A stretch of DNA of 64,000 bases from a virus (IMGVR_UViG_2671180676_000004:2122-66121); one strand, 5' to 3'. Numbered from the stretch's first letter, positions 1-28,914 are shown. Notes: generated from the sequence alone by a model not told the origin. Numbers and translations are program-made.

Positions 1-252
1 ATGGAAAATTTTCAAAGAAAGAGGCTGAAACCAATGGCCTACGTTCTCATTATAGTTTCACTGGCGACGGTAGCCGTTCCAGCCGGCCAGAGCCTTTTGA
101 TGCCGGGTTCATCCATCACCACACCTCCGTCGACGACAATTACCACCACTCCAGTAGAGCGTCCTGTCACTCTGGATGGGATGACGGTGGATGCGATACC
201 TCAAGTTCATCCAGTTACTCAGGATCATGCTGTGACTAAGGCGGTTGTATGA
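1..252 (+). CDS. hypothetical protein with Thr/Pro-rich tail; possibly truncated by window edge
   Basis: ORF begins at window base 1; hydrophobic N-terminal segment followed by TTPPSTTITTTP low-complexity stretch; no family recognised. Confidence 0.2.
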   Translation: MENFQRKRLKPMAYVLIIVSLATVAVPAGQSLLMPGSSITTPPSTTITTTPVERPVTLDGMTVDAIPQVHPVTQDHAVTKAVV

Positions 253-501
253 ACTGGTTTTCAAATCACTTTGGAAAAACTTGGCTGGCGATTCTGGCTT
301 TCATAGCTCTCATGGCCGCCGGTTGGGTATCGAACATTGTAAAACTCGTTTGCTCTGGTGATCTCCAGTTTCAGGCTGGTATGACCTTGGCTCGTGTTGT
401 TGGGATTTTTGTTTTTCCAGTCGGTTCGGTACTTGGTTATTTCTGACGGTTGTTAGTGCATATGCATTGACCGTCTTTTCGTAAGCAATTCATGTAACTA
501 G

Positions 502-516
502 AAAACAACTTGTTTT
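502..516. promoter_or_regulatory. palindromic operator-like site AAAACAA-C-TTGTTTT
   Basis: perfect 7-1-7 inverted repeat 24 bp upstream of ATG 540. Confidence 0.5.
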
Positions 517-539
517 AACAAATAACAAAAGGAAAGCAC

Positions 540-965
540 ATGTTAGGTTTATTCAAAAAGAAAACTCGTAAAGCTGTTATCGAGGTCAAAAAAATGGAGA
601 ACCGAGATGCGGTTGAAGCCACCGTGTGGGGCGCGTACATGATCTCCTATGCCGATGGCACATGCGACGCAAAGGAAATTTCCATTCTTGAGAAAACAAT
701 TGCAGCTCTGCCTGCGTTTTCTCCGTTTGCTGGTGAGATTGCCCAAATGAGCGCCAATATCCGTGCTCAATACGAAGCCTCACCGCGCCGCGCTAATGCC
801 CAGGCTTTACGTGAGCTGGCTGATGTGGCCGGGACTAATGATGCAGTAGATGTACTGTGTCTGTGCCTTGATATTGCCGACCAAGACGGTATTGGCGAAC
901 AAGAAGAGCTGGCCCTGAAAAAGATCGCACAGGCGCTTCAGTTGTCACTGGATGCTTATCTCTAA
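540..965 (+). CDS. TerB-like small acidic protein (tentative)
   Basis: 141-aa ORF; helical acidic protein resembling TerB-domain proteins; preceded by palindrome 502-516 and AGGAAAGCAC immediately before ATG. Confidence 0.35.
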   Translation: MLGLFKKKTRKAVIEVKKMENRDAVEATVWGAYMISYADGTCDAKEISILEKTIAALPAFSPFAGEIAQMSANIRAQYEASPRRANAQALRELADVAGTNDAVDVLCLCLDIADQDGIGEQEELALKKIAQALQLSLDAYL

Positions 966-1123
966 TGCTTGAGAGATTCCGGCTTGTGACCGTCATTGCT
1001 CTTCTGGTGATGGCGGTGTTGGTGGATTTTACGGGAAAGATGATGTCTGTCATTTCTGATGGCGTCCTCATTGGTCTGGCGATCTACTTCGCTTATCCGC
1101 TAGTCCGTAAAGCAACGTGTTAA
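965..1123 (+). CDS. small membrane protein (52 aa)
   Basis: ATG overlaps previous stop (TAATG); one hydrophobic helix (VTVIALLVMAVLV); followed by hairpin at 1128-1145; below the ORF-track length cutoff. Confidence 0.25.
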   Translation: MLERFRLVTVIALLVMAVLVDFTGKMMSVISDGVLIGLAIYFAYPLVRKATC

Positions 1124-1230
1124 TGACAAGGGCCAAATGGCCCTTGTGTTTCGTTGACCGAAATAGAGAGTTTGCACCTTTACGTTTAGCTTGCTCCCCT
1201 TTTATGCCACATCACAATAAAGCCAATAAG

Positions 1231-1245
1231 AAAACAACTTGTTTA
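1231..1245. promoter_or_regulatory. palindromic operator-like site
   Basis: AAAACAA-C-TTGTTTA 18 bp upstream of ATG 1263. Confidence 0.5.
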
Positions 1246-1262
1246 AGCATTAGGAAAAACAC

Positions 1263-1832
1263 ATGTGCAAGAAATGCAAAGCGATAGCTGATGAACAAAA
1301 CGCCTTATTCGAAGAAATGGATGCTAATGAACTGGTCAAAATGTTAGCCATTCTTCGAGGAATAGAAGACGTTTCCATATTTGAGAGAGTGGTTACAGCA
1401 CTTAATTTTGAGTCCACCTTTGAAGAGCCAACTCAGGTTGTAGCTTTAGCACATCATTTCGGTGTTCATTATCTTGCTGAAAAAGAGCGCGCTGATAAGT
1501 TGCAGGCGACTTTGGATATGGTGAGCGAGACTCAACGAACTGATGACACTAACAAGAGTGAGGCGATTATTGCCAGCAAAGATCGTGAAATTGCTGGGCT
1601 TAAATCCTCTCTAACGATGTTGATGTCTGCGTTCAATCTTATATCTTCTCAGGCGGGTTATAAAATGCCATCACTAAACAGCGATGATCCGATGGCCGTT
1701 CGTCAGCTTTTGGGAGCAATGGCCGACCAACTCGACGACACAAAGAGTCGGCTTGAAGACATGATGCGTGAGTTAAGCCATCGACATAACCTCGCAACAC
1801 AGCCACACAAAGCCTTTCAAAGCTCTAATTGA
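1263..1832 (+). CDS. hypothetical protein
   Basis: 189-aa ORF; palindrome 1231-1245 and AGGAAAAACAC before ATG, the same upstream module as at 540 and 62395. Confidence 0.4.
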   Translation: MCKKCKAIADEQNALFEEMDANELVKMLAILRGIEDVSIFERVVTALNFESTFEEPTQVVALAHHFGVHYLAEKERADKLQATLDMVSETQRTDDTNKSEAIIASKDREIAGLKSSLTMLMSAFNLISSQAGYKMPSLNSDDPMAVRQLLGAMADQLDDTKSRLEDMMRELSHRHNLATQPHKAFQSSN

Positions 1833-1887
1833 TCTGATATGGCCGCATGATCGGCCATATTGTGTTGATAAAAAACAAGGATGAAAA

Positions 1888-2169
1888 ATGGCATACGGTA
1901 CAGGGATTTACAACAATAAAGGAATTAACGTTACTGGCTTCCTTACTCCTATTTTTTTTCTTGATCGATTTACTGCGTCATCAGGCTCTAAGACGTACTC
2001 CAATCCGCCACCGGGTAAATCGCTACATGCCGTGTGGTCATTGATGCCTCTTAACAACGACAACTACATTAATTTACCTGTTCCAACAGTTACTATTAAT
2101 GGAAATACGGTTAGTTGGTCAAATTTATATACGGGGCTTGGTTCTTACATATACACATACTGGGGATAA
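1888..2169 (+). CDS. hypothetical protein (low-GC cassette)
   Basis: 93-aa ORF in visibly AT-rich segment; Gly/Asn/Thr-rich, beta-type composition. Confidence 0.3.
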   Translation: MAYGTGIYNNKGINVTGFLTPIFFLDRFTASSGSKTYSNPPPGKSLHAVWSLMPLNNDNYINLPVPTVTINGNTVSWSNLYTGLGSYIYTYWG

Positions 2170-2171
2170 TT

Positions 2172-2786
2172 ATGTTCGGGATGTCAATTACTCAATCAGA
2201 TGGAAGTTTGTGGATGAGTCCAGAATTTACTCCGCAAAATCTGATTAATAAAGGGACAATGTCTACATCTAAAGGTTCTGTTTTTCAAACATCAATCCCA
2301 TCAAACAAATCATGCTTTTTCTTCATAAAAAGCAGTAATAAGGCGAACATGATGTTTATTCATGAGCATAGTAACGGATACAATGCTCTCAGATTGCATC
2401 AGGTAAATGGTAGCCCCGGAACAATAACAGTTTATGCTTTTTCTGATATGGTGTTACCACATTCTGGCTATGGCATTGCCATGTATAACAGCGCAGGCGC
2501 AATGGTGTATCACGGTGAGATGATGCCCCTTGATGCGAAACTTATCACTATTTCTGACCCTCAATTTACAATAGATATGGGGTATCCATGTGCGGTAATG
2601 CCTGCTATGGTTGGGGTATATAACTATAGACGAACCGATTACGACAGACCTGTCTATGTAACAATGACAGGTGCAACTGAAAACCAAGTATATAACGGTC
2701 AATGGTATTCCGGTAATGTCACATGGGATATTAAGAAGATTTATACAAACAAAATTCTGGTGATAAATACCTCCAAGTATGATTAG
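2172..2786 (+). CDS. hypothetical protein (low-GC cassette)
   Basis: ATG at 2172 two bases after preceding stop; 204 aa; Asn/Gly/Tyr-rich; followed by 14-bp-stem hairpin at 2856-2893. Confidence 0.35.
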   Translation: MFGMSITQSDGSLWMSPEFTPQNLINKGTMSTSKGSVFQTSIPSNKSCFFFIKSSNKANMMFIHEHSNGYNALRLHQVNGSPGTITVYAFSDMVLPHSGYGIAMYNSAGAMVYHGEMMPLDAKLITISDPQFTIDMGYPCAVMPAMVGVYNYRRTDYDRPVYVTMTGATENQVYNGQWYSGNVTWDIKKIYTNKILVINTSKYD

Positions 2787-2889
2787 CCAATGCCTTTATT
2801 TGAAGGATTGCCTGTTTATTTCTATTTAGTACCTTTTCATTTTTGAAATAATTGCACCATTAAACAAATCACTTCTTAATGGTGCAATT

Positions 2890-3366
2890 ATGAATACAGC
2901 CCTTTCCATCATCGACGATGCCAACTCAAACACTGCTATCGACTATCGGCAGGAAATGAACGTCATCCACGAAATTGTGGCCGAGTGCGAGAAAGAGATC
3001 GCCTTCATGTATCAGGTACACGACTTCGTTTATGGCGACGAACGCCACAACATGATTAATCGCCTGCTGAGACTAAACCATCGACCAGATGAAGATCGCT
3101 CGCGTTTAAATCGAGGTTGGTTGGATAAAGTCGATCTGGAATGGGTGAAACAGAATATTTGGGCCGAGTACTGGAGGAAGGTCACGGACATGACTAACGT
3201 TTTGCTGATCATGCCAGCTTCCCGTCGTGACGAGTGGTATGAGCAATTTATCGAGGGCAAGCAGGAAGTCATCAAAACTGACAGAACCGGCTATCAGATG
3301 AAGGTTAAAGAGTTCGTTGGTGTACCTGAGTTCAAAGTGGATACAGACATCCCTACGATGGCTTGA
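2890..3366 (+). CDS. hypothetical protein
   Basis: 158-aa ORF; convergent with hsdR, only about 58 bp between the stops. Confidence 0.4.
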   Translation: MNTALSIIDDANSNTAIDYRQEMNVIHEIVAECEKEIAFMYQVHDFVYGDERHNMINRLLRLNHRPDEDRSRLNRGWLDKVDLEWVKQNIWAEYWRKVTDMTNVLLIMPASRRDEWYEQFIEGKQEVIKTDRTGYQMKVKEFVGVPEFKVDTDIPTMA

Positions 3367-3424
3367 TCTGACAGCTATCTGCAAATTGCACAGATATCTG
3401 CCAGATCTGGTTCAGATTAATACA

Positions 3425-6400
3425 CTATATCTGCCCACCTACTCCTTTGAACTTTTCAATAAACGTGACGATTTTCTGGAAAACCGTCTGTTTTTTCGTT
3501 TTATATTGCGGGTTTAACGGACTAAGTTTTGGTAATGTCTCGTTTAATTCTGTGCCATTTTCGGTGGCGTATTCGCGTTTTAAAGACGTGCGAATATAGC
3601 GTTTCGCCGCCTCTTCATTGAGATTTTCTTCTTTAATCAACGCTTCTGCTTCACGTAGCTGTTCGTGTTGAGCAAAGGTAAAGAACGCGTCAATGATGCT
3701 GGCTTTGTCTGGTAAATCATCCAGGTTCGTTTGCTGAATAAAATCGACCACCAGGCCCTCTTTAGCACGGTTCCCTAGGCTTGAACGAATTAAGCGTTTG
3801 ACCTCTTCGATCATTTCGCCCTTGCCTTTATTTTGTCTGTTGTGTTCGAAAATCAGTCCAAGGATATAATCCAGGTTTATTTCCTGAGACTTCAGCAAAT
3901 CGACCTCAAAAACTACGTCATCCCAGTCAGTGGTTGATTTCTCTTTTTTCTCAGCTTCTTTCTCACGGCGCTGCCAGTCGCGAATATCGTTATAGGCAGA
4001 ACGATAATCCTGAATCTTGCGATCAGCAGGGAGACGAATTGTTTGCAATTCAGCGAACTTTTCATCATCCACATAATGTTCTGCTTTGAATTTTTCTACC
4101 GCAACAGGATCGCTAAGATCGATTTGTTGCAGGGCTTTTAGCGTGGCAAATTCATCATAGTTTTGCAGGATGTTCTCGGCACGCAGGTATTCGCCAAACA
4201 GTTTAACGAAGTCTTTCTTCTCTTTTTCACTTTCAATACTGGCAGGGTCAGGGAACCGTTGTTCCAGTTCTGAAACTACTGCCATAAAGCCGCGTTTAGC
4301 TTCACCTGTAGCAGCATCAGTAAAGCCTTCCATATACTCTGCATAACTCTTTTCTAACACTACATTTTTGGTGTTTTTGTCACCAAACAGCGTTATGGCA
4401 TCGATGGTTGAGCGTTCCAGATCGCGGAAAGTGACGATATTACCGAAGGTTTTAGTCGCGTCATAAATGCGGTTGGTACGGGAAAATGCCTGCATCAGGC
4501 CGTGAAAACGCAAGTTTTTATCGACGAATAGCGTGTTTAATGTTGGAGCATCGAAGCCGGTTAAAAACATCCCCACGACGATTAACAAGTCAACATCCTG
4601 ATTTTTAACCCGCTGAGCCAGGTCCCGATAGTAGTTCTGAAAACCCTTGCTATCAGTGCTGAAATTCATTTGAAAATGGTCGTTATACTCACGAATTGCA
4701 GCGTCCAGAAACTCTTTAGCACTGCTGTCCATTGCACTGGTATCAAAAGATTCATCGGATATTTCACCAATGGCATTTTGTTCTTCATTAGCGGCAAAGG
4801 AGAAGATTGTCGCAACACGCAGTGGTTTATAGGTAGCAGATTTATTAGCTGCTTCCTCTTGTAACCGTTTAAACGTCGCGTAATAGGCTTTCGCGGCATC
4901 CACGCTGCTCACTGCCAACATAGCATTAAAACCTTTTGAGCCAGGGAAGGTACGGTGGGTTTTCTGGCGGAAATTATTCAGAATATATTGCGTGATTTCC
5001 TGAATACGCATGGGATGAAGAAACGCCTGCTGATTTTCAGCCGCACTCAGTTTTTTCTCGTCAGTTTCTGTCTCTAAAGACTTAAACTGTGGCCGCACAT
5101 CGTTGTAGTCCACCTTGAATTTGAGCACTTTTTCGTCACGAATCGCATCGGTAATTACATACGAATGCAATTCACGACCAAATACGCTGGCGGTTGTTTC
5201 TGAGCCTAAGGCGTTTTCCGGGAAAATAGGGGTGCCGGTAAAACCAAACTGATAATAACGTTTGAATTTCTTCTTCAGGTTTTTCTGCGCTTCTCCAAAC
5301 TGGCTGCGGTGGCATTCATCAAATATAAACACCACTTGCTGATTATATACAGGCAGGTCGCTTTCTGCTTTCATCAGGTTATTGAGTTTCTGAATAGTAG
5401 TGACGATAATTTTGTTATCGTCCTTATCCAGATTTCGTTTAAGGCCTGCGGTATTTTCCGAGCCGTTGACGCTGTCTGGCGAAAAACGCTGATATTCCTT
5501 CATGGTCTGGTAATCGAGGTCTTTCCTGTCGACCACAAAGAAGACTTTATCAATAAAGTCCAGCTCTGTTGCCAGACGCGCGGCTTTAAAGCTGGTGAGG
5601 GTTTTACCAGAACCGGTAGTGTGCCAGATATACCCACCGCTTTCCGGTTTTGACCAGTTCTTCGCTGTAAAGGAACTCTTAATTTTCCACAGAATGCGCT
5701 CGGTGGCGGCAATCTGGTACGGTCGCATCACCAGTAGCGTCTGACTACTGTCAAAAACGCTGTAGTTCACCAGAACATTCAGCAGAGTATGTTTCTGGAA
5801 AAAGGTAGCGGTAAAGTCTTTGAGGTCTTTAATCAGCGTGTTGTCTGATTTCGCCCAATTCATGGTGAAGTCAAAACTGTTTTTATCGCGCTTTGTGGTG
5901 TTGGCAAAATAACGGGTATCAGTGCCGTTGGAAATGACGAACAGCTGCAGATACTTAAACAGGGAATTTTCGCTGTTAAAACTCTCTTTACTGTAACGAT
6001 GTATCTGGTTGAAAGCCTCACGAATCGCCACCCCGCGTTTTTTTAGTTCGATTTGCACCAGCGGTAAACCATTAACCAGGATCGTGACGTCATAACGGTT
6101 AGCATGAGAACCCGTCTGTTCAAACTGCTGGATAATCTGCACCTTATTGCGCATGAGATTCTTTTTATCTATCAAATAGATGTTCTCAAGTCGCCCGTCG
6201 TCAAAAATAAAGTCGCAGATATAGTCGATATGGATTTTACGGGTTTTATCCAGAATACCATCGCTGGGGTTGTCCAGATACTGCTCCGTGAAGCGCCGCC
6301 ACTCGCTGTCATTAAACATCACACCATTGAGGCTCTGAAGCTGTTCCCGAACATTGGACAGCATTGCCGACTGTGATTTTACGGAAATAAATTCATAACC

Positions 6401-6541
6401 CTGATTCCGCAGGTCCTGAATCAGTTCACGTTCCAGGTCCGATTCGCTCTGGTAGCTGTCGCTTGTTTGCTCAGCTTTGATGTACTTATCAAGGACGATA
6501 AAGTTATTGGATTCAGCAATGGTGTGTGTTTGATGAGTCAT
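3425..6541 (-). CDS. hsdR: type I restriction enzyme R subunit (type IC, EcoR124I-like)
   Basis: 1038-aa ORF; SF2 helicase motifs (TGSGKT Walker A, DECH box); last gene of minus-strand M-S-R order; length typical of type IC HsdR. Confidence 0.9.
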
Positions 6542-6663
6542 AGCGCATCCTTTGTGCCGCCTGGCAAGAGCCGGAAGGGCGTTAAGAGTGACTTCCGGCG
6601 CGTAAAAAAATAGTCTATATACTGACCGGGTGTTAAGGTGGCCCGATCGGTAGCAATGGTCAA

Positions 6664-7902
6664 TTAATTACTGACAGTTTCAGGTTTCGGGAAACTGAAC
6701 AGTAAATCACGGTAGTATTCGTATTGTTTCTGGCGCAACTCGATTTCACGCGGGAGACCTTCGGTGATGGAGTTGGTCAGGGTGTCGAATTTATCGAGCA
6801 GAGCAGATATTCGCTCTTGTTTCTGTTTATCAGGCAATGGCACTGGTAATGTTTTTATAATATCTGCATTCAAGTTACTGACCGACCCGCTATTGATTTT
6901 ACTTTCCCAATAATTTTTCACCTTTTTTGATGAAAGATAGTGATACAGATAATCAGCATTTAATTTTTCACCAAAATTGCTGATTGATGCCCATCCATCA
7001 TGGATAGCTCCGGTTATCCTTAAAATATATGGTCTGCCAAAGCTCATAGAGTTAGAAATGACGAAATCACCGGGGTTCAAGATTCGCGATTTTTGGGCAC
7101 CCTCTGCAGTTATTTTTTGTAAGGTTTTGTCAATGTATTTAGAGCCGGGGATAGTATCTCCGATTTTAATCCATGGGATACCATTTCCTTGTTCAGTAAG
7201 ATAATTAACAATTGGCCTGGGGGATGCCCCACGTTGTATTTTGGCTACTTCTCCCAATGCCTTCCACTCAACCTCACCCTCTTTAAAACTCAGCAACTGG
7301 TCGCGATAGTAGTTGTACTGTTTTTTACGCATGTTAAGCTCAGCGGTAAGCTCAGCGGTAAGTGCAGTAAACTTATCCAGAATCCGAACAATTTCAGACT
7401 GGATGGCAAGGGATTTTCCCGGGGCGCTGGGACAAGGGATGGGTATTTGATAGTTTAAAATTGCATCTTTACTGCCTCGAGGCATCTTTGCCCCTTTAGC
7501 GTGCTGCATACTGTAAGAAAAAAATGAATCCGACGATAATGCATAGTAGAGATATTCTGGACTAATAATTTTTTTACAGTCTGCTAAAATGCGTATAGCA
7601 AGGACATCACCACTGCACCCGCCATTATTCTCCGCCATCCAAACTTTCTTTAAATATGGGCGAATATTACCTAAAAGAATATCACCTGGCTCATAGGCAG
7701 TTAAACGTGCCGTATTAGGCTGATAGGTGGCGTCAATGCGACCGCCTTTATCAGCAAGGAGATTATCAACGCCAACGAATGAAGTGGCATCAAGTTTATC
7801 AGCATCAACTTTGGTTGTTGAATACCCGGCGATATCGCCCACTGCTTTCCACTCAACCTCAACCCCATCCAGCAATTTTTCCAGATAACTCAACTCGCTC
7901 AT
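6664..7902 (-). CDS. hsdS: type I restriction-modification specificity subunit (type IC)
   Basis: 412 aa; two target-recognition domains separated by conserved central region containing TAELTAEL and followed by conserved C-terminal region ending [13 protein letters not shown]; start overlaps hsdM stop. Confidence 0.85.
7337..7360. repeat. 12-bp tandem duplication (2 copies) encoding TAEL-TAEL in hsdS central region
   Basis: AGCTCAGCGGTA repeated at 7337-7348 and 7349-7360. Confidence 0.85.
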
Positions 7903-9461
7903 TTCTGCACCTCGCAGCCTTCAATTTCAGCCACAATCGCATCAATATCTTTACGCAACTGGTCGATTTTGCTGACCGTGGTTTTCAGCTCTGCATTCAA
8001 CTCAGCGATATCGATAATTTCGCGAGTATCTTTCACTTCAACATAGCTGCTCACCGACAGGTTATAGTCATTAGCAACAACAGTCTCAAACGCAACAGAT
8101 TTCGCCAGATGAGCAACATCTTCCTTGCTGGCAAATACCTGCATAATTTTTTCTATATGGGCATCGGTCAGAATGTTGTTGTTAGTCTCTTTTTTGAACA
8201 GTTCGCTGGCATCAATAAACTGAACTTTGGTATCCGTTTTATGTTTAGACAGCACCAGAATATTGACGGCAATGGTGGTGCCAAAGAACAGGTTCGGTGC
8301 CAGTGAAATCACGGTTTCGACATAGTTATTGTCAACCAGATACTGACGGATTTTCTGCTCCGCGCCGCCACGGTAAAAAATGCCCGGGAAGCAGACAATC
8401 GCAGCACGACCTTTGGCAGAAAGATAGTTCAGCGCATGTAATACAAACGCAAAGTCAGCTTTGGATTTGGGGGCCAGAACGCCAGCCGGGGCAAAACGTT
8501 CATCGTTAATCAGCGTCGGGTCATCGCTGCCAATCCATTTCACCGAATACGGCGGGTTAGAAACGATGGCATCAAACGGTTTTTCATCTCTGAAGTGCGG
8601 CTCAGTCAGCGTATTGCCCAGCTTGATATCAAACTTGTCGTAGTTGATGTTGTGCAAAAACATGTTCATACGCGCCAGGTTATAGGTCGTATGGTTGATC
8701 TCCTGACCGAAAAAGCCTTCTTCGATGATGTGGTCATCGAACTGCTTTTTCGCCTGCAACAACAGCGAACCGGAACCTGCTGCCGGGTCGTAGATTTTGT
8801 TAACGTGGGTCTGGCCGTGCATTGCCAATTGTGCAATCAGCTTAGAGACGTGCTGCGGTGTAAAGAACTCGCCGCCTGACTTACCAGCATTCGCGGCATA
8901 GTTAGAAATCAGGAACTCATAGGCATCGCCGAACAGGTCAATCTGATGTTCGTTGAAGTCACCAAGTTTTAACCCTTCAACCCCTTTCAGAACCGCAGCC
9001 AGGCGGGCATTTTTATCTTTAACGGTGTTACCCAGGCGGTTACTGGTGGTATCGAAATCAGCAAACAAACCTTTGATGTCAGCTTCTGAAGGATAACCGT
9101 AAGCAGAACTTTCGATAGCAACGAAGATGCTGTTTAAATCTGCGTTCAGTCTGTCATTGGTATTTGCTTTCGCCGCTACGTTGCAGAAAAGCTGACTGGG
9201 GTAGATGAAGTAGCCTTTAGTTTTGATGGCATCGTCTTTAATGTCATCAGTAATTACGCTGTCATCCAGTTTCGCATAACAGATACTGTCATCACCGGCT
9301 TCAATATAGCTGGAAAAATTTTCGCTGATAAAACGGTAGAAAAGTGCGCCCAGAACGTATTGCTTAAAATCCCATCCATCGACCGAACCCCTGACATCGT
9401 TAGCAATTTGCCAGATTTGACGATGAAGCTCTGCACGTTGTTGAATACTTGTCATTTTCAT
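7899..9461 (-). CDS. hsdM: type I restriction-modification DNA methyltransferase subunit
   Basis: 520 aa; N6-adenine methyltransferase motifs (NPPY at the catalytic site, AdoMet-binding DPAAGSGS); first gene of operon. Confidence 0.9.
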
Positions 9462-10587
9462 CCACTTATTTCAGGCTTATGTAATTGGCGGTGATTCTAC
9501 AGCAACTTGGATGCTTTAGCAGTTCGGACATTAGGCAACGAATGACCTAATTAGAGCTTTTTGGAAAAGCGGTATTGTCGGTGCGATGATAGCTATGTTT
9601 GGGTGCGCGATGGTGCAATACAATGACGGTGAAAAGGTAAGCATCCAGTCTGATGGCTGGTATGGGCTGGATAGCCTGCAAAAAACCGCAGATAAAGCCT
9701 GTCAGCAATATGGAAAGTCTAAAGCCGTATATCAGCATAGCGCGAACGCTAATCCACATCTCGCGCCCGGCACGGGCGTTCAGAACACTATTTGGAAATG
9801 CGAACCATAACGCAGGTTGGCTTTTTACATCTTGGGCCGAATACTGATTCCGCGCTAAGTTGTTTGTGCGGAAGTGACACTGTGGAGCTTAGAAATAGTA
9901 AATACTGGTGGGCAACAAATTGAGCCTTCACACGCTCACCAGCACACACAAAAAATGGTTAAACAGCAAGGGAATTAATATCTCATCGCGACATTAAATA
10001 AGCCAGCGCACGCCTCTGTTTATCACTGACTTGAAAAACCATATCAGAACCACGATGAAGACAATCGCCAGCACTTGGCTAAGAACAGGCGCATTTAAAA
10101 ATGCACTTAGAAACTGAAAAAATACAATCATCAGGGTAATCCTCGTCTAATGTAAAGCTGTGTGCTCTCACGTTGACGTAGAAACCCAACCTCTATATAG
10201 TTGGATTCGGTGAAAGAAAGTCGTTAACGTGAACTTACGGCACATGTTTTCGGTATAAAAATCAGGGAACTGTGAATTCCTTGATGTAGTTGGGGCCTGT
10301 AATGCAGGCCCTATCTATTAATGTCATGATTACATCTCAAATTTTCTCCTTATCATTATTATTTAATAAAATTCAATTAATATAATATCCATTTCCTGTG
10401 TGTGCAAACACAGTATGAGGAAAATGGCCCCGTTGCAAGTGCATAACTTTGTGGATAACTCTGAAGGCGAATTTACATTTCGGCGCACCGCAAGCCAGAT
10501 AAGCTGTGCGCAAAAAGCAATGGGGTGAGAAAAAAACTTTGAAGATATTGCGGCGACTAAATAATAGCCGTTATTCAATTATTCTGG

Positions 10588-10851
10588 ATGGGATTTAATA
10601 TGAACGAATGGAACATAGCAGCCAAAAGCCAGGAAGAAAGGAATAAAGTTAACGTTGACCTGGCTGCCAGGGGGGTTGCCTACAAAGAGCGATTGAACAT
10701 ACCCGTCATAGCGGAACAGGTAGCCCGTGAGCAACCTGAGAACCTGCGCACCTATTTCATGGAACGGCTACGGCACTACCGGCAGTTAAGCCTCCTGCTG
10801 CCAAAAGGAAACGATCCGGTATATCAGAAAGAAGATATAGCCAAAAAATAA
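10588..10851 (+). CDS. hypothetical small protein
   Basis: 87-aa ORF (alternative ATG at 10600) directly upstream of UmuD'-like gene; no family recognised. Confidence 0.3.
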
Positions 10852-10949
10852 CGCGCCACCAGGCGAGCGCAAAGCATCGCGCTATTGCACACTTCAAGCA
10901 TCTTTAATGTATACTGTATGGATAAACAGTACTCTGAGGTGAAAACGCT

Positions 10950-11339
10950 ATGGGCTTCCCTTCTCCTGCGGCGGATTATGCTGAGAGTCGTATTTCTCTT
11001 GATCAGCAGATAATTAGACATCCTTCAGCGACCTACTTCTTGAGGGCAGCTGATAGTCATCATCGTGAGGGAATATTACAGGGTGCATTGCTGGTGGTCG
11101 ATTCCTCACTTACCCCGGTTGATGGTTCTCTGCTTGTATGCGCTCTGGATGGGGAATATCGCGTAAAAAGATACCGGAAGTATCCACGTCAGCATCTGGA
11201 GGATTTGAGAACCGGTAAGAAGGAAGCATTGCCAAAGGATGACGATGGATGCACGGGCAGCAATGCCGTGTTTGGTGTGATCACTCACATTATCAACGAC
11301 GCAAGAAGTGGCGAGTTTGATGATTGTCCCGTGATGTAG
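10950..11339 (+). CDS. UmuD'-like S24-family peptidase, naturally lacking the N-terminal cleavable segment
   Basis: 129 aa beginning M-GFPSPAADY, the sequence that follows the Cys24-Gly25 self-cleavage site in E. coli UmuD; candidate Ser (ADSH) and Lys (RVKRY) dyad positions retained; no umuC partner adjacent. Confidence 0.6.
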   Translation: MGFPSPAADYAESRISLDQQIIRHPSATYFLRAADSHHREGILQGALLVVDSSLTPVDGSLLVCALDGEYRVKRYRKYPRQHLEDLRTGKKEALPKDDDGCTGSNAVFGVITHIINDARSGEFDDCPVM

Positions 11340-11375
11340 GAGAACTGATTAGGCGGTGCAATGCACCGCCTTTTA

Positions 11376-12476
11376 TCACACTGCGCGGAATGCGATCTCG
11401 CCAGGTATTACTTCGCCTTGCCAATACATTTGGGCAGCAACGCGATCTGCGAGGTCACGATAAATAGCCGTAAATTCGCTATCTGGACGACTAATAACGG
11501 TTGGTGTTCCGTTATCCAGATCTTCACGAAGAGAGATATGAAGTGGCATTTGGCCTAACAACTGCGTGTTGTATTTCTCGGCCAGTTTCTGTGCGCCACC
11601 GGTGCCAAAAATTGGCTCGTGATGACCGCAGTTACTGCAAATATGCACACTCATGTTTTCGACGATACCCAGTACCGGCACTTCGACTTTTTCGAACATC
11701 ACAATGCCTTTCTTCGCATCGATCAGCGCGATGTCTTGCGGCGTAGTTACCACAACCGCACCAGTTACAGGAATGTTCTGCGCCAGCGTCAACTGAATAT
11801 CACCAGTGCCCGGCGGCATATCGAGAACGAGATAGTCCAGATCAGGCCATAGAGTTTCCTGCAACATCTGCATCAGCGCCTTGCTGGCCATCGGTCCACG
11901 CCACACCATTGCATTGTCGTCGGTGACCAGATAACCAATAGAGTTGGTTGCCAGGCCATGAGACATGATAGGTGCCATGTGAGTACCGTCCGGTGAGGTT
12001 GGACGTTGGTTTTCCGCGCCCAGCATGGTTGGAATTGATGGACCATAGATATCGGCATCCAAAATACCAACTTTCGCACCTTCAGCAGCCAACGCCAGTG
12101 CCAGGTTTACCGCCGTGGAGGATTTACCCACGCCGCCCTTGCCTGAGCTGACGGCGATAATGTTCTTAACGCCATTAATGCCTGGTTGGTTTTTGACGCG
12201 CTTAAGCGTGGCAATGTTGTACGACAGCTTCCAGTCAATAGCCTTTGCGCCAGTGATACGGAGCAGATCACCACTACATTGCTCTTTCAGGTCTTCAAAA
12301 GGCTTATTCCACACGAAAGGCATGATTAGTTCGACATGCAGTGTGTCATCCATCAACGCAACATGGTGTAACGCTTTAAGCGTAGTCAGGTTGTGTTTCA
12401 GGGTTGGGTGCTGAAAATTAGCCAGCGTACCGGCTACCATTGCTCTCAGGGCATCCGGCGATTTGGACTCGCTCAT
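11376..12476 (-). CDS. apbC: Fe-S cluster carrier ATPase ApbC/Mrp
   Basis: 366 aa; P-loop GKGGVGKS; CxxC pair; divergent from metG as in Escherichia chromosomes. Confidence 0.9.
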   Translation of the reverse strand: MSESKSPDALRAMVAGTLANFQHPTLKHNLTTLKALHHVALMDDTLHVELIMPFVWNKPFEDLKEQCSGDLLRITGAKAIDWKLSYNIATLKRVKNQPGINGVKNIIAVSSGKGGVGKSSTAVNLALALAAEGAKVGILDADIYGPSIPTMLGAENQRPTSPDGTHMAPIMSHGLATNSIGYLVTDDNAMVWRGPMASKALMQMLQETLWPDLDYLVLDMPPGTGDIQLTLAQNIPVTGAVVVTTPQDIALIDAKKGIVMFEKVEVPVLGIVENMSVHICSNCGHHEPIFGTGGAQKLAEKYNTQLLGQMPLHISLREDLDNGTPTVISRPDSEFTAIYRDLADRVAAQMYWQGEVIPGEIAFRAV

Positions 12477-12633
12477 CCCGTCTCCTTTATTTTAATTTGC
12501 GCAATTGTCGCCTTGTAGTGTACTCCAGCTACGACATTTAATCATTTATGAGAAATGCTGTTATCACATGGCAGACATAAGGCCATTTTGTTACTATCAA
12601 GCCCCTTTTCACTACAAAGAAGTAATGCCTACT

Positions 12634-14667
12634 ATGACCCAAGTCGCGAAGAAAATTCTGGTGACGTGCGCGCTGCCGTACGCTAACGGCTCAATCCACC
12701 TCGGCCATATGCTGGAGCACATCCAGGCTGATGTCTGGGTTCGTTACCAGCGAATGCGCGGCCACGAGGTTAATTTCATCTGTGCCGACGATGCCCACGG
12801 TACGCCGATCATGCTGAAAGCACAGCAGCTTGGTATCACACCGGAGCAGATGATTGGCGAAATGAGTCAGGAACACCAGACTGATTTCGCAGGCTTTAAC
12901 ATCAGCTATGACAACTATCACTCGACGCACAGCGAAGAGAACCGTCAGTTGTCTGAGCTTATCTATACTCGCCTGAAAGAGAACGGTTTTATTAAAAACC
13001 GCACTATCTCTCAGTTGTACGACCCGGAAAAAGGCATGTTCCTGCCGGATCGTTTTGTAAAAGGCACCTGCCCGAAATGTAAAGCGCCAGATCAATACGG
13101 CGATAACTGTGAAGTCTGCGGCGCAACATATAGCCCGACTGAATTGATCGAGCCGAAATCGGTGGTTTCTGGCGCTACCCCGGTAATGCGTGATTCCGAA
13201 CACTTCTTCTTTGATCTACCTTCTTTCAGCGAAATGTTGCAGGCATGGACCCGCAGCGGCGCGTTGCAGGAGCAGGTGGCGAACAAAATGCAGGAATGGT
13301 TTGAATCCGGCCTGCAACAGTGGGATATATCCCGCGATGCGCCTTACTTCGGTTTTGAAATTCCGAACGCGCCGGGCAAATATTTCTACGTCTGGCTGGA
13401 CGCGCCGATTGGCTACATGGGTTCCTTCAAGAATCTGTGCGACAAGCGCGGCGATACCACCAGCTTCGATGAATACTGGAAGAAAGACTCCACCGCCGAG
13501 CTGTACCACTTCATCGGTAAAGATATTGTTTACTTCCACAGCCTGTTCTGGCCTGCCATGCTGGAAGGCAGCAACTTCCGCAAGCCGACCAACCTGTTTG
13601 TTCATGGCTATGTGACGGTGAACGGCGCGAAGATGTCCAAGTCTCGCGGCACCTTTATTAAAGCCAGCACCTGGCTGAATCATTTTGACGCTGACAGCCT
13701 GCGTTACTACTACACTGCGAAACTCTCTTCGCGTATTGATGATATCGATCTCAACCTGGAGGATTTCGTTCAGCGTGTGAATGCCGATATCGTTAACAAA
13801 GTGGTTAACCTGGCGTCCCGTAACGCTGGCTTTATCAATAAGCGTTTTGACGGTGTGCTGGCAGGCGAACTGGCTGACCCGCAACTGTATAAAACCTTCA
13901 CTGATGCTGCTGAAGTGATTGGTGAAGCATGGGAAAGCCGCGAATTTGGTAAAGCTATCCGTGAAATCATGGCATTGGCTGACCTGGCTAACCGCTATGT
14001 CGATGAACAGGCTCCGTGGGTGGTGGCGAAGCAGGAAGGACGCGATGCCGATCTGCAGGCGATTTGCTCTATGGGCATTAACCTGTTCCGCGTGCTGATG
14101 ACGTACCTGAAGCCGGTACTGCCGAAACTGACTGAACGTGCAGAAGCATTCCTGAATACAGAACTGACCTGGGATGGTATCCAGCAACCGCTGCTGGGCC
14201 ATAAAGTGAATCCGTTCAAGGCACTGTATAACCGCATCGATATGAAGCAGGTTGAAGCACTGGTGGAAGCATCCAAAGAAGAAGTGAAAGCCACAGCCGC
14301 ACCGGTAACTGGCCCACTGGCTGACGACCCGATTCAGGAAACTATCACCTTTGACGACTTCGCCAAAGTTGACCTGCGCGTGGCGCTGATTGAAAACGCA
14401 GAGTTTGTAGAAGGTTCTGACAAACTGCTTCGCCTGACGCTGGATCTCGGTGGTGAAAAGCGTAATGTCTTCTCAGGCATCCGTTCCGCTTATCCAGATC
14501 CACAGGCACTGATTGGTCGTCACACCATTATGGTGGCTAACCTGGCACCACGTAAAATGCGCTTCGGTATCTCTGAAGGCATGGTGATGGCTGCTGGCCC
14601 CGGCGGGAAAGATATCTTCCTGTTAAGCCCGGATGCTGGTGCTAAACCTGGCCACCAGGTTAAGTAA
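12634..14667 (+). CDS. metG: methionine--tRNA ligase
   Basis: 677 aa from ATG 12634 ([26 protein letters not shown]); HIGH-type and KMSKS motifs; zinc knuckle CPKC...CEVC; C-terminal tRNA-binding domain; intrinsic terminator at 14690-14713. Confidence 0.95.
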
Positions 14668-14689
14668 TTAAACAACCTCTCTTCGCAAT

Positions 14690-14713
14690 GCCCGGCAACA
14701 CGCCGGGCATTTT
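14690..14713 (+). terminator. intrinsic terminator of metG
   Basis: GCCCGGC-aacac-GCCGGGC followed by ATTTT. Confidence 0.7.
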
Positions 14714-14750
14714 CATATAGACACAATCCCTTCTGATTTACACAGTACCT

Positions 14751-14765
14751 AAAACAATTTGTTTT
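14751..14765. promoter_or_regulatory. palindromic operator-like site
   Basis: AAAACAA-T-TTGTTTT, first of a tandem pair after metG terminator. Confidence 0.5.
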
Positions 14766-14801
14766 CTACCTTTTGTTGATGGAGATAATAAACCACATAA
14801 G

Positions 14802-14816
14802 AAAACAACTTGTTTT
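14802..14816. promoter_or_regulatory. palindromic operator-like site
   Basis: AAAACAA-C-TTGTTTT, 13 bp upstream of ATG 14829. Confidence 0.5.
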
Positions 14817-14828
14817 GGAGTGGTTGAA

Positions 14829-15128
14829 ATGTTGAACATTACCCAAGCCTACCAGGTGGCATTGATCAGCTCATCTCATACATCAGAGGAAGATGCTCGC
14901 CGATTCATGATCGCAAGCAATGAGCTGGATTGGGTTTCACAAATTGAGTACGGTTGCATTGTCCACGCCGGGTTACAGGACGATGACTGGAAAGATGAGT
15001 TGCGTCGATATGGTATATCCGAGGGCGCGATTGCGAACATTCAGAAAGTACTTGATGTAGGCTTTGACTCTGTACATTTTGATTGTGGTGCACCGGTCGT
15101 TGAAGGGCTAGAGTGCTGGCAATGGTAA
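14829..15128 (+). CDS. hypothetical protein (first gene after metG)
   Basis: ATG 14829 with GGAG 8 bp upstream; two palindromes (14751-14765, 14802-14816) immediately upstream. Confidence 0.35.
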   Translation: MLNITQAYQVALISSSHTSEEDARRFMIASNELDWVSQIEYGCIVHAGLQDDDWKDELRRYGISEGAIANIQKVLDVGFDSVHFDCGAPVVEGLECWQW

Positions 15129-16072: not shown

Positions 16073-16189
16073 CGGTTGCAACTCATTGATAATGGCGGTC
16101 ACAATTTGATTCTTTTCTATAAGAATCCGTTGATCGCCACTACTCCCCTTCCATACCCGCAATCACATCCTTAAATATCAATAAGTTAT

Positions 16190-16990
16190 AGTTGTTTATA
16201 CAATCAAGAAAACAACTGAATAACAGATCAACGAAACATCAACGCTTTCACCCGATTTGGTCTAAAAAATTGACGTTTTCACACATCACTGCTTATACCC
16301 GTAATTCTACGCAGCAGACAGCGCCACAGCGTCCAATTTTCACCACAGACGACCCAACACACTACCAACAAAAACACACGCTCAAAATCGTTCCCGTTGC
16401 GTTACATAACCATATAAACAACTTATTTCAGGCATAACAAAACAACTAAATAACACATATGCCATTCCCAAAACAACCAACCTCTTTATGGCAGGCTACC
16501 GAAAAGACCCACCTCTTCTTCCCAGGCTACCGGACAACCAACCTAACTTTCACAGGCAATCCGAAAACATTCATACGCGCGATACCCACGACACGCCATT
16601 ACCCAAACAGCGAAGAAACATCAGAATCACTGAAACCCCAACGAAGCCTGTAACCGCAAGGTTTCTCTCAATCCCAAAAGACACGAAACATAACAATCAC
16701 GGGAAACGCCATTACCCAATACACGAATAACTACAAAAGCCCTTCACGCACTCCAGACAAACAACTCAAACACAATAACGAAAGGAATCGCCCACCTGCC
16801 ATTACTCCATACACGGAGAAGAACAATCACCAAAACGACGAGAACACCCCATAGAAGAACCACCGCAAAACGAACGAAACCATTTACACCGACAGAGAGA
16901 ACAACACGCCCAATTCACCAACAGAAATAGTCGCCGTATAGAACGTTCTGGAAGGAGTGAGCATTAACGCCTATAGAGAGGTTGAGACAG
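16190..16990. repeat. strand-asymmetric A/C-rich non-coding region with degenerate repeats
   Basis: Plus strand almost devoid of G/T runs; recurring units (GCCATTACCCAA..ACA at about 16596, 16709, 16798; CAGGCTACCG at about 16490, 16525); only low-complexity ORFs. Confidence 0.5.
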
Positions 16991-17141
16991 ATAAAACACG
17001 AAGAAAACACAACATGTATAGCGAAGAAGCCAGGTATGTATAAGTGGGGAGGGAAGGAGGGGTGTCGCCTCCTTTTTCGTATTTATTCAACTCCTGATTT
17101 TATCCCCCGTAACACCCCTACGGTCAGCCTTCGGTCCATAC

Positions 17142-17285
17142 AGGGAAAAGGTTGCATCCCGCTACAGAAACGGCTGGGTTGCCTTCGGGGAACGGCTGGA
17201 GGTTTTCAGGGAAACGGTCGAGTTGCCTGTGTGGATTTCGGGAAAAGGCTCGATGCCGGTTCAGGAACGGCGGCGTACCGGTATA
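17142..17285. repeat. iteron-like direct repeat array (about six units of 21-23 bp, core GGGAAACGG)
   Basis: cagGGAAAAGGttgc / cagAAACGGctgg / cgGGGAACGGctgg / cagGGAAACGGtcg / cgGGAAAAGGctcg / cAGGAACGGcgg in head-to-tail arrangement. Confidence 0.55.
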
Positions 17286-17608
17286 GCGTGAGGGAGAGTT
17301 GCGGCTACCCACCTGTAATGTGCGGGAAGAAGAGAGGCGCTCACGTGCAGGCGAACTTACTTACCGCTGGATTCCCTCTGAATGCCCAGCTACAGCGTAA
17401 TTGTGCCAGACAGCCAACGGGTCACAATCGATTTCAGTAGGTTTTCGGGGAGAGGATTATTCTGCCCACCAGCCACCTTCGGCCACTAAATCAGAATAAT
17501 GTAAAAAGTGTACTCGATACTGAACCTGAAAACTCACTGCCAAAACAACATTCACCGGAATAAAATCCTTTTTCGCCTGTGCGTTATTGCGATAATAACA
17601 CCAACGAG

Positions 17609-17623
17609 AAAACAATTTGTTTA
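17609..17623. promoter_or_regulatory. palindromic operator-like site
   Basis: AAAACAA-T-TTGTTTA upstream of ATG 17635. Confidence 0.5.
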
Positions 17624-17634
17624 AGGATTGCTTT

Positions 17635-19589: not shown

Positions 19590-19625
19590 TTATTAAGGCC
19601 ATCAGCATTGATGGCCTTAAATGAC

Positions 19626-19700
19626 CATCCTGTTTCCCGCAGGCTAAAAACACCAACCTCTTACCTCCAGGCAACCGACAAACCCACCTGTTCCCGTCCG
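19626..19700. repeat. inverted-orientation copies of the GGGAAAC iteron core plus CAGGC-ACCGA element
   Basis: cctGTTTCCCgcagg and cctGTTCCCgtccgg (reverse complement of iteron core); segment AACCAACCTCTT..CAGGC.ACCGA..CCCACCT shared with 16470-16510. Confidence 0.4.
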
Positions 19701-19759
19701 GCTACCGCAACTTTCCACTTTGACGCCTTATTCGTACAACGATAATTAACACCAATAAG

Positions 19760-20412: not shown

Positions 20413-20863
20413 TTTATGTAGAAAAAACATCGGGAAGCTGGTGGAATCCAACCAGCGGTTGTCGGACAGGTGAGCGGGGAAAATTATGATGACTTTCGTC
20501 ACCTGAGACATCCAGATTTCTTTCGTAGCATAATTACATACGTGATTAAGTGGTGTGATTATGTGAAAAATCACGCGCACATAATACGCGAGCGGATACG
20601 GAACAAAACAAAATGCCGATCCGCGCCGACAAATAAACGCGGATCATAAAGCAAGACTAAAAGCCAATGATTAACCATACTCTATAGCGCAATATAACGC
20701 GTTTTAAGCGCGTTAATGTGTTAAGTAATGGGTATGTACTGGTAAGGATATAAAAGCGCGTCTATGGCGTTATTTTGGCGCTTATTTTTATGTTGTTGGA
20801 GTGAGTTAAAGACAATAAAAAACGCGCTAATGATGGCGCGTTATGGTGGGAGTATTGGAAACG

Positions 20864-20897
20864 AAAAAAGCGCCCATAGTGGGCGCTCGATTTTATT
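20864..20897. terminator. bidirectional terminator-like hairpin
   Basis: AAAAAA-GCGCCCA-tag-TGGGCGC-tcga-TTTTATTT; same stem reappears inverted at 21364-21382. Confidence 0.55.
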
Positions 20898-21363: not shown

Positions 21364-21382
21364 AGCGCCCACTATGGGCGCT
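21364..21382. terminator. hairpin with same stem as 20869-20887
   Basis: GCGCCCA-cta-TGGGCGC, downstream of minus-strand gene 21395-22045. Confidence 0.4.
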
Positions 21383-21394
21383 TGATTCCATTAA

Positions 21395-28899: not shown

Positions 28900-28914
28900 T
28901 AAACAAGTTGTTTT
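28900..28914. promoter_or_regulatory. palindromic operator-like site
   Basis: TAAACAA-G-TTGTTTT upstream of ATG 28954. Confidence 0.45.

Follow-up and report, generated by a model that had tools for sequence, protein, structure and literature searches.

A probable ancient capture of apbC-metG by an SSU5-like phage-plasmid of Escherichia, and the contrasting evolution of the two genes

The 64,000-nucleotide viral stretch IMGVR_UViG_2671180676_000004:2122-66121 (hereafter the window, meaning the whole of this stretch) is a continuous 64-kb piece of a ~111-kb circular extrachromosomal SSU5-like phage-plasmid of Escherichia. Between its backbone genes lies a cargo region that includes apbC (mrp), which encodes an iron-sulfur (Fe-S) cluster carrier ATPase, and metG, which encodes methionyl-tRNA synthetase (MetRS). 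We consider it very probable that the cargo was assembled stepwise from three modules, that apbC-metG was captured anciently from a chromosome, and that metG has since been converted by the host gene. SSU5-like phage-plasmids, the EcoR124 family, P1-like hot/humD genes, host-derived morons and virus-encoded aminoacyl-tRNA synthetases are already known, and the pair is annotated in GenBank; what stands out is an unusual evolutionary twist, in which neighboring captured genes have met opposite fates. Full-text literature searches found no discussion of metG or apbC on SSU5-like or phage-plasmid elements.

Identity of the element and origins of its cargo

Positions 3300-14800 of the window are 100% identical to pUTAK-6-1 (E. 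coli UTAK-6, NZ_CP157149.1, 111,466 bp, circular, non-mobilizable), and positions 39001-63983 are a 100% match to the same plasmid at an exactly colinear position. The annotation of this twin plasmid includes terminase, portal, tape measure and tail genes. The left flank (1-3370) is 96-97% identical, and the right flank (14700-39000) 96-98% identical, to the Escherichia phages Cyrano and CMS-2020a; identity of the flanks to Salmonella phage SSU5 and to Klebsiella relatives is lower, about 80%. Over ~24 kb the values are 97-98% for Cyrano/CMS-2020a and 79-81% for SSU5 and the Klebsiella relatives. The window has the synteny and similarity of an SSU5-like backbone, including the phage structural module. 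With the known SSU5-like phage-plasmids (SSU5, pHCM2, pLF82 = Cyrano, and pECOH89) it shares a colinear backbone at 80-98% identity, siphovirus structural genes, ParB-like genes, palindromic upstream modules and the state of a ~110 kb extrachromosomal plasmid (PMC9928086; PMC3999498). In E. coli LF82, Cyrano exists as plasmid pLF82 with a copy number of ~5.5 per cell; its virions have been shown by quantitative polymerase chain reaction and electron microscopy, and it is inducible by ciprofloxacin (PMC9928086). Virion production by the element in the window is predicted by analogy with this relative.

A segment covering the terminase-portal genes was found in 237 of 5,426 complete E. coli genomes, and all 245 of its places are on plasmids, with none on a chromosome; 216 E. 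coli records hold it at ≥95% identity. A 1-kb probe spanning the metG/backbone junction was intact in 198 of the same 5,426 genomes. Colinearity with a circular plasmid, together with the lack of chromosomal backbone places, identifies the window as a continuous extrachromosomal phage-plasmid, and the 198 intact junctions indicate that the contig is neither chimeric nor a piece of chromosome caught between two elements. These had been among the possibilities raised by the first-pass annotation, which saw core genes bracketed on both sides by genes of one mobile-element family. A misassembly that fused chromosomal apbC-metG to a phage-plasmid is conceivable, since both genes occur in every E. 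coli chromosome and could drive a repeat-mediated misjoin, but it can be given almost no weight: the junction recurs in 198 independently finished genomes, in ~188 PLSDB plasmids, in phage records and in a second lineage (PP2, below), both junctions are also seen in dozens of circular plasmids sequenced to completion, the plasmid-borne genes form an allele of their own (identity to the chromosome 88% over the pair and 83% for apbC), and chromosomal flanking sequence is absent. Chromosome lying between two related integrated elements, or a chromosomal insertion later rearranged, has a vanishingly small probability when the window is colinear with one circular 111-kb plasmid, the backbone has no chromosomal place in 5,426 genomes, and the chromosomal neighbors of apbC-metG, yehE and a DUF4132 gene, are missing from the window. 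Such an arrangement had drawn its appeal from the puzzling lack of both tRNA genes and attachment repeats. No tRNA gene was found in the window, and a search for direct and inverted repeats over positions 1-22000 gave nothing convincing, with only weak pairs (22-30 nt, 70-81% identity; e.g. 6299/14500, 8995/14695 and 2785/13954) and none at the junctions. Their absence fits an extrachromosomal phage-plasmid, which needs neither, and the apparent paradox of core genes between element genes has an ordinary explanation as phage-plasmid cargo.

The variable cargo region extends from 3370 to 14747, flanked by a truncated backbone methylase gene and by the first backbone gene with a palindrome. Homology to Cyrano and SSU5 ends at 3364-3370, within a gene for a DUF4942 DNA methyltransferase whose remnant in the window gave no Pfam hit, and SSU5 homology restarts at 14748, exactly at the first palindrome. 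Alignment to these relatives, one of the checks proposed at the outset, revealed different cargo in the corresponding interval: the rest of the methylase gene, Eaa/Ea22-like genes and others. SSU5 has neither apbC-metG nor hot/humD nor hsd, whereas Cyrano contains humD-apbC-metG, an intact methylase gene, and Ea22-like genes where the window has hsd.

The left part of the cargo is an hsd cassette with three intact open reading frames (ORFs), which encode HsdM, HsdS and an HsdR with an EcoR124-type C-terminal domain; the Pfam set also includes T1R_D3-like and SWI2_SNF2 domains. HsdR aligns end to end with the HsdR of EcoR124I (PDB 2w00) over residues 1-1038 with a score of 2260 bits. The cassette, which reaches from the hsdR stop codon to a point ~100 nt upstream of hsdM, has 95-96% identity to the P1-like phages phi456 and vB_EcoM-673R5, where it lies between pmgS and phd-doc, and it is absent from Cyrano and SSU5. 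The match to P1-like phages and the EcoR124I-like HsdR mark the cassette, as judged from sequence, as a type IC restriction-modification (R-M) system from the plasmid/phage-plasmid gene pool. With EcoR124I/II of plasmid R124 it shares the full-length HsdR alignment, the order hsdM-hsdS-hsdR and the EcoR124_C domain, while its carrier here is a phage-plasmid. The middle of hsdS is unlike that in the P1-like phages, so the recognition sequence probably differs from theirs as well.

The second module resembles the hot-humD (lxr) region of P1, with 82-83% nucleotide identity, a theta homologue and, adjacent to it, a UmuD'-like S24 peptidase gene behind a LexA box. It differs from P1 in being placed inside an SSU5-like backbone, adjoining apbC. 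Homology of Cyrano, CMS-2020a and PhiR41_1 to this part of the window is bounded on the left at 10897-10910 and runs rightwards; Cyrano-type relatives have humD in common with the window, but not this hot segment. In the transcriptome table of strain LF82, values for CYRAN_98, the humD homologue, climb from log2 7.4 to 12.3 between conditions. What lies left of apbC varies: most elements have humD, a 62-kb derivative from E. albertii has genes for GNAT and polysaccharide-deacetylase proteins, and PP2 has BOF and hok genes.

The third module is the apbC-metG pair. All 5,426 E. coli genomes match the window at 11380-14668 only, with ~88% identity. Beyond both stop codons, the terminators and flanks are unrelated to the sequences on the chromosomal yehE and DUF4132 gene sides, and the neighbors that define the native chromosomal locus are not found. 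These alignments point to apbC-metG (3.3 kb) as the only chromosome-derived part of the cargo. The first-pass annotation had suggested, as one of several alternatives, that a phage-plasmid captured about 11 kb of chromosome, from hsdR to metG. Its gene content was borne out, with hsdR, hsdS, hsdM, apbC and metG all showing full-length Pfam architectures, and so was the idea of a phage-plasmid with captured chromosomal genes. The chromosomal look of the block holds for apbC-metG and fails for hsd, hot and humD, which are mobile-element genes, so that the captured part is reduced to 3.3 kb; hsd comes from the plasmid/phage-plasmid pool, hot/humD is P1-like, and the event appears to be ancient. 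One recent capture of all five kinds of gene would explain their contiguity, and type I R-M systems are often chromosomal. We nevertheless regard it as very unlikely, as the hsd cassette is of EcoR124 type and sits in another context in P1-like phages, hot and humD are P1-like, humD-apbC-metG is common to Cyrano, CMS-2020a and PhiR41_1, all of which lack this hsd cassette, the E. albertii plasmid p3RM15113 and lineage PP2 share only apbC-metG with the window, and E. coli chromosomes match none of the cargo outside the pair.

Probable capture of apbC-metG and opposite fates of the two genes

Among GTDB species representatives, the chromosomes nearest to the pair are those of Escherichia (87.6-88.4%), followed by Citrobacter (~85%) and Salmonella (83%). 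A closer chromosomal donor was looked for and rejected, the best GTDB representatives in the MetG search being Escherichia at 88% nucleotide identity over the pair. A search of 5.8 billion proteins with ApbC returned nothing at 95-100% identity except the element's own protein, in a database clustered at 90% and so uninformative on the donor. One GTDB representative, 'Enterobacter hormaechei B56' (CP170191.1), has an E. coli-type apbC-metG at a Jukes-Cantor distance of 0.02-0.03 from E. coli, and its label looks wrong.

MetG is 99.0% identical to E. coli MetG in amino acids and ~94% in nucleotides; ApbC is ~94% identical in amino acids and apbC ~83% in nucleotides. All metG alleles encode the HLGH (residue 22) and KMSKS (residue 333) motifs, together with the anticodon-binding and C-terminal tRNA-binding domains of a MetRS. 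The 99% identity suggests that plasmid MetG would have aminoacylation activity and complement metG. In both phage-plasmid lineages ApbC retains SGKGGVGKS, a deviant Walker A motif, and the CxxC motif CSNCG that characterize ApbC/Mrp proteins. The intergenic region at 12477-12586 has diverged from E. coli, and only 47 nt with the metG -10 and leader are conserved. The hairpin at 11351-11371 has no homology to the sequence downstream of chromosomal apbC, nor has the metG terminator to the E. coli sequence downstream of metG; the latter belongs to the element and not to the chromosome. A scan for consensus terminators listed neither the hairpin at 11351-11371 nor that at 14687-14711, while folding against shuffled sequence supports both. 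The metG hairpin had been called in the first reading and was found at 14687-14711, with the first palindrome beginning 40 nt past it.

In PLSDB, 188 plasmids carry the pair at ≥95% identity; they come from E. coli, E. albertii, E. fergusonii and Shigella, and almost all of them are ~110 kb in size and non-mobilizable. One and the same ApbC protein, WP_000004356.1, appears in the annotation of phage-plasmids from E. coli, E. fergusonii and S. sonnei. Comparison of the 198 intact junctions with the 216 backbone records indicates that apbC-metG occupies this one site in the majority of elements of the lineage, and the 62-kb E. albertii derivative p3RM15113 has kept the pair too. Hits to MetRS were obtained in 28 of 50,697 phage records, and those outside this group belong to jumbo or metagenomic phages, to short records lacking annotation (2.5-80 kb) or to sequences that resemble host DNA. 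Two candidates for convergent capture of metG were rejected: 'Acinetobacter phage MD-2021a' (CAKLQF020000011.1) is a chromosomal contig with dcd, pfs, mrp, metG and emrB, and 'Pseudomonas phage Y5' (OQ572407.1) is an UNVERIFIED, unannotated record with a host-like metG.

A second phage-plasmid lineage, PP2, beside that of the window (PP1), came to light through a 366-residue 'E. coli' ApbC with only 81% identity to that of the window. PP2 contigs, which come from E. coli third-party annotation (TPA) assemblies such as DAFUVE010000025.1, contain apbC, metG, the terminator, both palindromes and the DUF5983 gene in the window's arrangement, on a backbone 75-81% identical to the window. The terminator stem carries a compensatory change from G-C to A-U. 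PP2 ApbC has evolved about five times as fast as chromosomal ApbC (dN, the nonsynonymous divergence, 0.137 vs 0.025). In neighbor-joining trees, apbC of PP1 and PP2 forms one clade (bootstrap 99-100 for nucleotides, 83 for protein), which is sister to Escherichia with bootstrap values of 92 for all nucleotides, 35 for codon positions 1+2 and 20 for protein. The two ApbC proteins share a 3-residue N-terminal deletion and the derived motifs VWNKPFE, K(Y/H)NTQ, DLDNG and AQMYWQ. The shared indel and the shared junction argue for a single capture of apbC-metG from a chromosome of the Escherichia lineage, anciently and before PP1 and PP2 split. Beside the pair, PP2 holds genes for IS605-type OrfB/TnpB, Rpn-family transposase-like proteins, hok, a BOF protein, cytochrome c peroxidase, cytochrome b562 and hsdS.

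Since the capture, the two genes appear to have followed opposite courses. Between the chromosomes of E. coli and Escherichia sp. E1V33, synonymous divergence (dS) is 0.54 in apbC and 0.30 in metG, a metG/apbC ratio of 0.56; between the chromosomes of E. coli and Salmonella it is 1.35 and 0.94 (ratio 0.70). The corresponding values are 1.40 and 0.33 (0.24) between PP1 and E. coli, and 1.71 and 0.29 (0.17) between PP1 and PP2. Ratios of 0.17-0.24, set against 0.56-0.70, mean that the divergence of element-borne metG is three- to four-fold below what the linked apbC predicts. In apbC, the GC content of third codon positions (GC3) is 0.62 in E. coli, 0.53 in PP1 and 0.43 in PP2, a drop toward the range of the backbone (0.41-0.51); in metG it is 0.60-0.61 on the elements and 0.63 in E. 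coli. Within PP1 the order is reversed, and metG (94.7-96.3% identity) is more diverse than apbC (97.1-98.6%).

The distribution of differences within metG points to exchange with the chromosome. In the window, the tract at 13462-13733 has longest exact runs of 167 and 104 nt against an E. coli chromosomal allele, and chromosome-like patches with few mismatches sit at differing positions in different metG alleles. The metG allele of a Shigella sonnei plasmid includes a 344-nt tract identical to a chromosome, and 42 of its 49 informative sites are chromosome-like in metG nucleotides 333-1275. Recombination was tested with seven PP1 alleles and two chromosomal references. Chromosome-like sites were clustered in maximum chi-squared tests: five of the seven gave 0/300 permutations as extreme as the data, and the other two gave p = 0.013 and 0.037. 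The amino-acid states of MetG follow the same chromosome-like tracts. The simplest reading of this mosaicism is recurrent homologous gene conversion with chromosomal metG; apbC, at ~83% identity to the chromosome, appears to have diverged beyond the reach of conversion.

A host-like metG might instead reflect slow evolution under codon bias, or re-capture of the whole gene, with no recurrent conversion. The lower dS of metG than of apbC in all chromosomal comparisons is as slow evolution would have it, and whole-gene replacement would equally produce discordance between the two genes. We judge both versions unlikely. A difference in rate accounts for a ratio of ~0.6 and not for 0.17-0.24; neither version accounts for chromosome-like tracts at differing positions, identical runs of up to 344 nt and significant breakpoints, nor for metG being more polymorphic than apbC within PP1. 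Since PP1 and PP2 have the metG 3' junction and terminator in common, any replacement must have been internal, and hence homologous recombination in any case.

Selection on the pair and its possible roles

Both genes look functional and are under purifying selection. Against E. coli, dN/dS is 0.016 for metG and 0.027 for apbC at the dS of 1.40. Among the seven PP1 alleles, 199 polymorphic codons of metG are synonymous-only and 13 include an amino-acid change, and the corresponding counts for apbC are 63 and 2; none of the seven alleles has a stop codon in either gene. In LF82, the ApbC homologue CYRAN_99 is among the morons expressed in the lysogen, at 9-fold above the prophage background, and is labeled 'septum site-determining protein' in the table of Cyrano morons (PMC9928086). 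CYRAN_99 is steady at ~log2 6-6.7 in the LF82 transcriptome table.

Several observations weigh against parts of this account. The trees are neighbor-joining trees only, and the long phage-plasmid apbC branches make long-branch attraction possible, against which the shared indel, residues and junction argue. The recombination tests reveal mosaicism, but neither the direction nor the time of exchange. Flow in reverse, from plasmid to chromosome, was set aside after one unusually similar chromosome, KE47 (90.3%), proved uninformative and simply a divergent E. coli allele. Conversion from a selected chromosomal donor could itself preserve metG, so that the low dN/dS of apbC is stronger evidence for direct selection than that of metG. 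The metG homologue CYRAN_100 is weakly transcribed in LF82, at ~16 units (log2 4.2, falling to ~3), a figure that may depend on how reads were split between plasmid and chromosome. Finally, the annotation of pAMPD01 (NZ_CP058309.1) splits metG into several small ORFs and gives a shortened apbC, which reflects either genuine pseudogene formation or indel errors in the assembly.

The weak transcription of metG, the plasmid with a broken copy, and the success of SSU5 and its Klebsiella relatives without the pair would all be expected if apbC-metG were a neutral passenger that benefits neither element nor host. We find this distinctly improbable. Both ORFs are intact in all seven sampled PP1 alleles and in PP2 despite an apbC dS above 1.4, and apbC, which has no conversion tracts, shows a dN/dS of 0.03-0.07 and an identical protein across species. 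The pair is kept in 198 of ~216-237 E. coli elements while the neighboring cargo turns over, and even in the 62-kb derivative. Selection for the pair is our preferred interpretation, and its benefit, to the lysogen or to phage replication, may lie in dosage or back-up.

Two specific roles were considered and set aside. A drug- or toxin-insensitive MetRS variant is unlikely, as there are no element-specific substitutions: the 'plasmid-type' MetG residues T112, T275, T276 and I442 are states also present in Salmonella and Citrobacter. ApbC is also unlikely to act as a ParA-like partition ATPase, since SSU5 and its relatives in Klebsiella lack it and are still stably maintained.

Giant viruses and huge (jumbo) phages encode aminoacyl-tRNA synthetases. 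The window shares with them a full-length, motif-complete class I MetRS in a virus genome. It differs in that the carrier is a ~110-kb temperate phage-plasmid, the enzyme is 99% identical to that of the host and appears to exchange sequence with the host gene, and metG arrived with its chromosomal neighbor apbC. In its host origin, its site in a variable region, the terminator at each end and the retained metG promoter, the pair is comparable to the morons and auxiliary metabolic genes of phages, and Cyrano has the apbC homologue among its lysogen-expressed morons. Unlike typical morons, one of the two genes here, metG, is an essential housekeeping gene; it duplicates that of the host, brings no new trait, and seems to evolve in concert with the host gene.

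We propose the following history. An ancestor of the Escherichia SSU5-like phage-plasmids would have taken the divergently transcribed apbC-metG once from a chromosome of the Escherichia lineage, as a piece now bounded at the two stop codons. Purifying selection has kept both genes intact in no fewer than two phage-plasmid lineages that diverged deeply. On the element, apbC would have evolved fast, its base composition drifting to that of the backbone, while repeated RecA-type conversion with the resident chromosomal metG would have held metG host-like and generated the mosaic alleles. The P1-type hot/humD genes, probably LexA-regulated, would form a second module. The EcoR124-type cassette, a third, may have been exchanged between co-resident P1-like and SSU5-like phage-plasmids, its insertion truncating the backbone methylase gene. 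In lysogens, MetRS would be transcribed from its own retained promoter at plasmid copy number, and the pair would add wild-type charging of Met-tRNA and delivery of Fe-S clusters for the lysogen and probably for the replicating phage. The hsd cassette would restrict incoming DNA and thereby shield the lysogen, and humD and hot would respond to SOS. Of this history, the sequence comparisons show the architecture, the extrachromosomal state, the modular origins of the cargo, the old single capture, the selection on both genes and the mosaic metG; the physiological roles are inferred.

A second, multicopy and intact gene for MetRS and for an Fe-S carrier is present on a phage-plasmid in ~3.6% of finished E. 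coli genomes (198/5,426). With apbC diverging with the element and metG evolving in concert with the host, the pair offers a clean case for the divergence limits of recombination between element and chromosome, and it is relevant to the question of how temperate phages benefit from translation genes. In practice, extra copies 83-96% identical to the chromosome may confuse read mapping, the calling of single-nucleotide polymorphisms and core-genome typing at metG and apbC, and may cause plasmid contigs to be classed as chromosome or chromosome contigs as plasmid. More speculatively, and as a proposal that we put forward with considerable doubt, plasmid metG might serve as a standing recombination partner of an essential chromosomal gene, with elements importing and perhaps exporting host metG while ApbC has an element-specific role. 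If so, elements that infect E. coli, E. albertii, E. fergusonii and Shigella would shuttle housekeeping alleles between strains and species, multicopy wild-type metG may mask costly chromosomal metG variants such as antibiotic-tolerance alleles, and the fast-evolving, directly selected ApbC would hold that role.

Backbone modules and feature coordinates

The boundaries of the cargo coincide with the palindrome AAAACAANTTGTTTT. With at most one mismatch it occurs in 11 copies in the window, against 0.03 expected, and 0 of 100 shuffles reached 11. Two copies lie on the left (502 and 1231) and nine on the right (14751, 14802, 17609, 18093, 18996, 19760, 28900, 58334 and 62362), in agreement with the initial observation of a palindromic module on both sides of 3425-14720 and none within. 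Every copy is 3-54 nt upstream of a + strand start codon, most have a GATAAT-like hexamer ~14 nt on their 5' side, and the ribosome-binding site lies on the other side. The copy at 28900 precedes a gene at 28954 that is itself just upstream of the terminase-portal genes. The module is present at least eight times in 25 kb of SSU5, which identifies it as a regulatory signature of the backbone of the SSU5-like family; the palindrome is probably an operator for a regulator of the element. Coordinates of the features are collected in Table 1.

Table 1. Features of the cargo region and the adjoining backbone in the window
Feature	Position	Strand	Evidence and remarks
Left phage-plasmid backbone, small genes	1-3366	+	Includes TerB/TciA-like gene 540-965 and ORF 1263-1832; annotated in pUTAK-6-1
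Palindromic module AAAACAACTTGTTTT	502-516		Upstream of gene 540; second copy 1231-1245 upstream of gene 1263
5' remnant (158 aa) of DUF4942 DNA methyltransferase gene	2890-3366	+	Intact (561 aa) in Cyrano (CYRAN_90) and SSU5 (SSU5_095)
Left cargo junction, ~55 nt between methylase breakpoint and hsdR stop codon	3364-3424		Comparison with Cyrano and P1-like 673R5
Probable type IC (EcoR124-family) R-M cassette, order hsdM-hsdS-hsdR, with upstream region	3425-9560	-	Pfam; PDB 2w00
hsdR	3425-6541	-	Pfam EcoR124_C, HSDR_N
hsdS	6664-7902	-	Pfam Methylase_S
hsdM	7899-9461	-	Pfam N6_Mtase, HsdM_N
P1-like SOS/replication accessory module	9938-11339	+	82-83% identical to P1 lxr-hot-humD region
hot, DNA polymerase III theta homologue	10600-10851	+	Pfam DNA_pol3_theta
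LexA box TACTGTATGGATAAACAGTA	10912-10931	+	Consensus match read from sequence
humD, UmuD'-like S24 peptidase	10950-11339	+	Pfam Peptidase_S24
Hairpin between convergent humD and apbC, probable terminator	11351-11371		-18.9 (+) / -19.0 (-) kcal/mol; z = -5.7 / -4.6
apbC (mrp), Fe-S cluster carrier ATPase, phage-plasmid-specific allele, 366 aa	11376-12476	-	Pfam NUBPL/ParA PF10609, E = 2e-102
metG core promoter (-10 TACTAT) and 5' leader, conserved	12587-12633	+	Pairwise alignment with E. coli chromosome
metG, methionyl-tRNA synthetase, 677 aa, intact	12634-14667	+	Pfam tRNA-synt_1g, Anticodon_3, tRNA_bind
Candidate gene-conversion tract in metG	13462-13733	+	1 mismatch in 272 nt against E. coli chromosomal allele
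metG terminator, hairpin followed by UUUU	14687-14711	+	-19.1 kcal/mol; z = -5.6
Right end of cargo, palindromic modules 14751-14765 and 14802-14816	14748-14816		SSU5 homology resumes at 14748; conserved in PP2
First backbone gene after metG, DUF5983 protein	14829-15128	+	Pfam DUF5983; also after metG in PP2, and in Cyrano

Some further features of the backbone were noted. A perfect 16-nt inverted repeat (ATAATTGCACCATTAA ... TTAATGGTGCAATTAT) with a 12-nt spacer, at 2848-2863 and 2876-2891, lies over the start codon of the truncated methylase gene and is a motif distinct from the family palindrome. About 1.5 kb at 16073-17634 is free of annotated coding sequences in pUTAK-6-1 and weakly conserved in SSU5 (67%); the segments 19618-19711 and 10179-10214 are also of note. 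At 16.2-16.95 kb the + strand is C/A-rich and nearly free of G (GC skew -0.35, AT skew +0.31). Repeats of the form ACC(A/C)ACCT-N10-CAGGCTACCG recur with a spacing of ~30 nt, three copies at 16470-16566 and three at 19618-19711. Tandem Repeats Finder (TRF) and Rfam gave no match for the C/A-rich repeat region around 16073-17634, and Rfam found nothing in the whole window; the region could represent iterons or an origin, or encode a non-coding RNA. Two near-identical GC-rich hairpins (AAAGCGCCCATAGTGGGCGCT) at 20863-20887 and 21364-21388, ~500 nt apart, flank small - strand ORFs and look like duplicated terminators.

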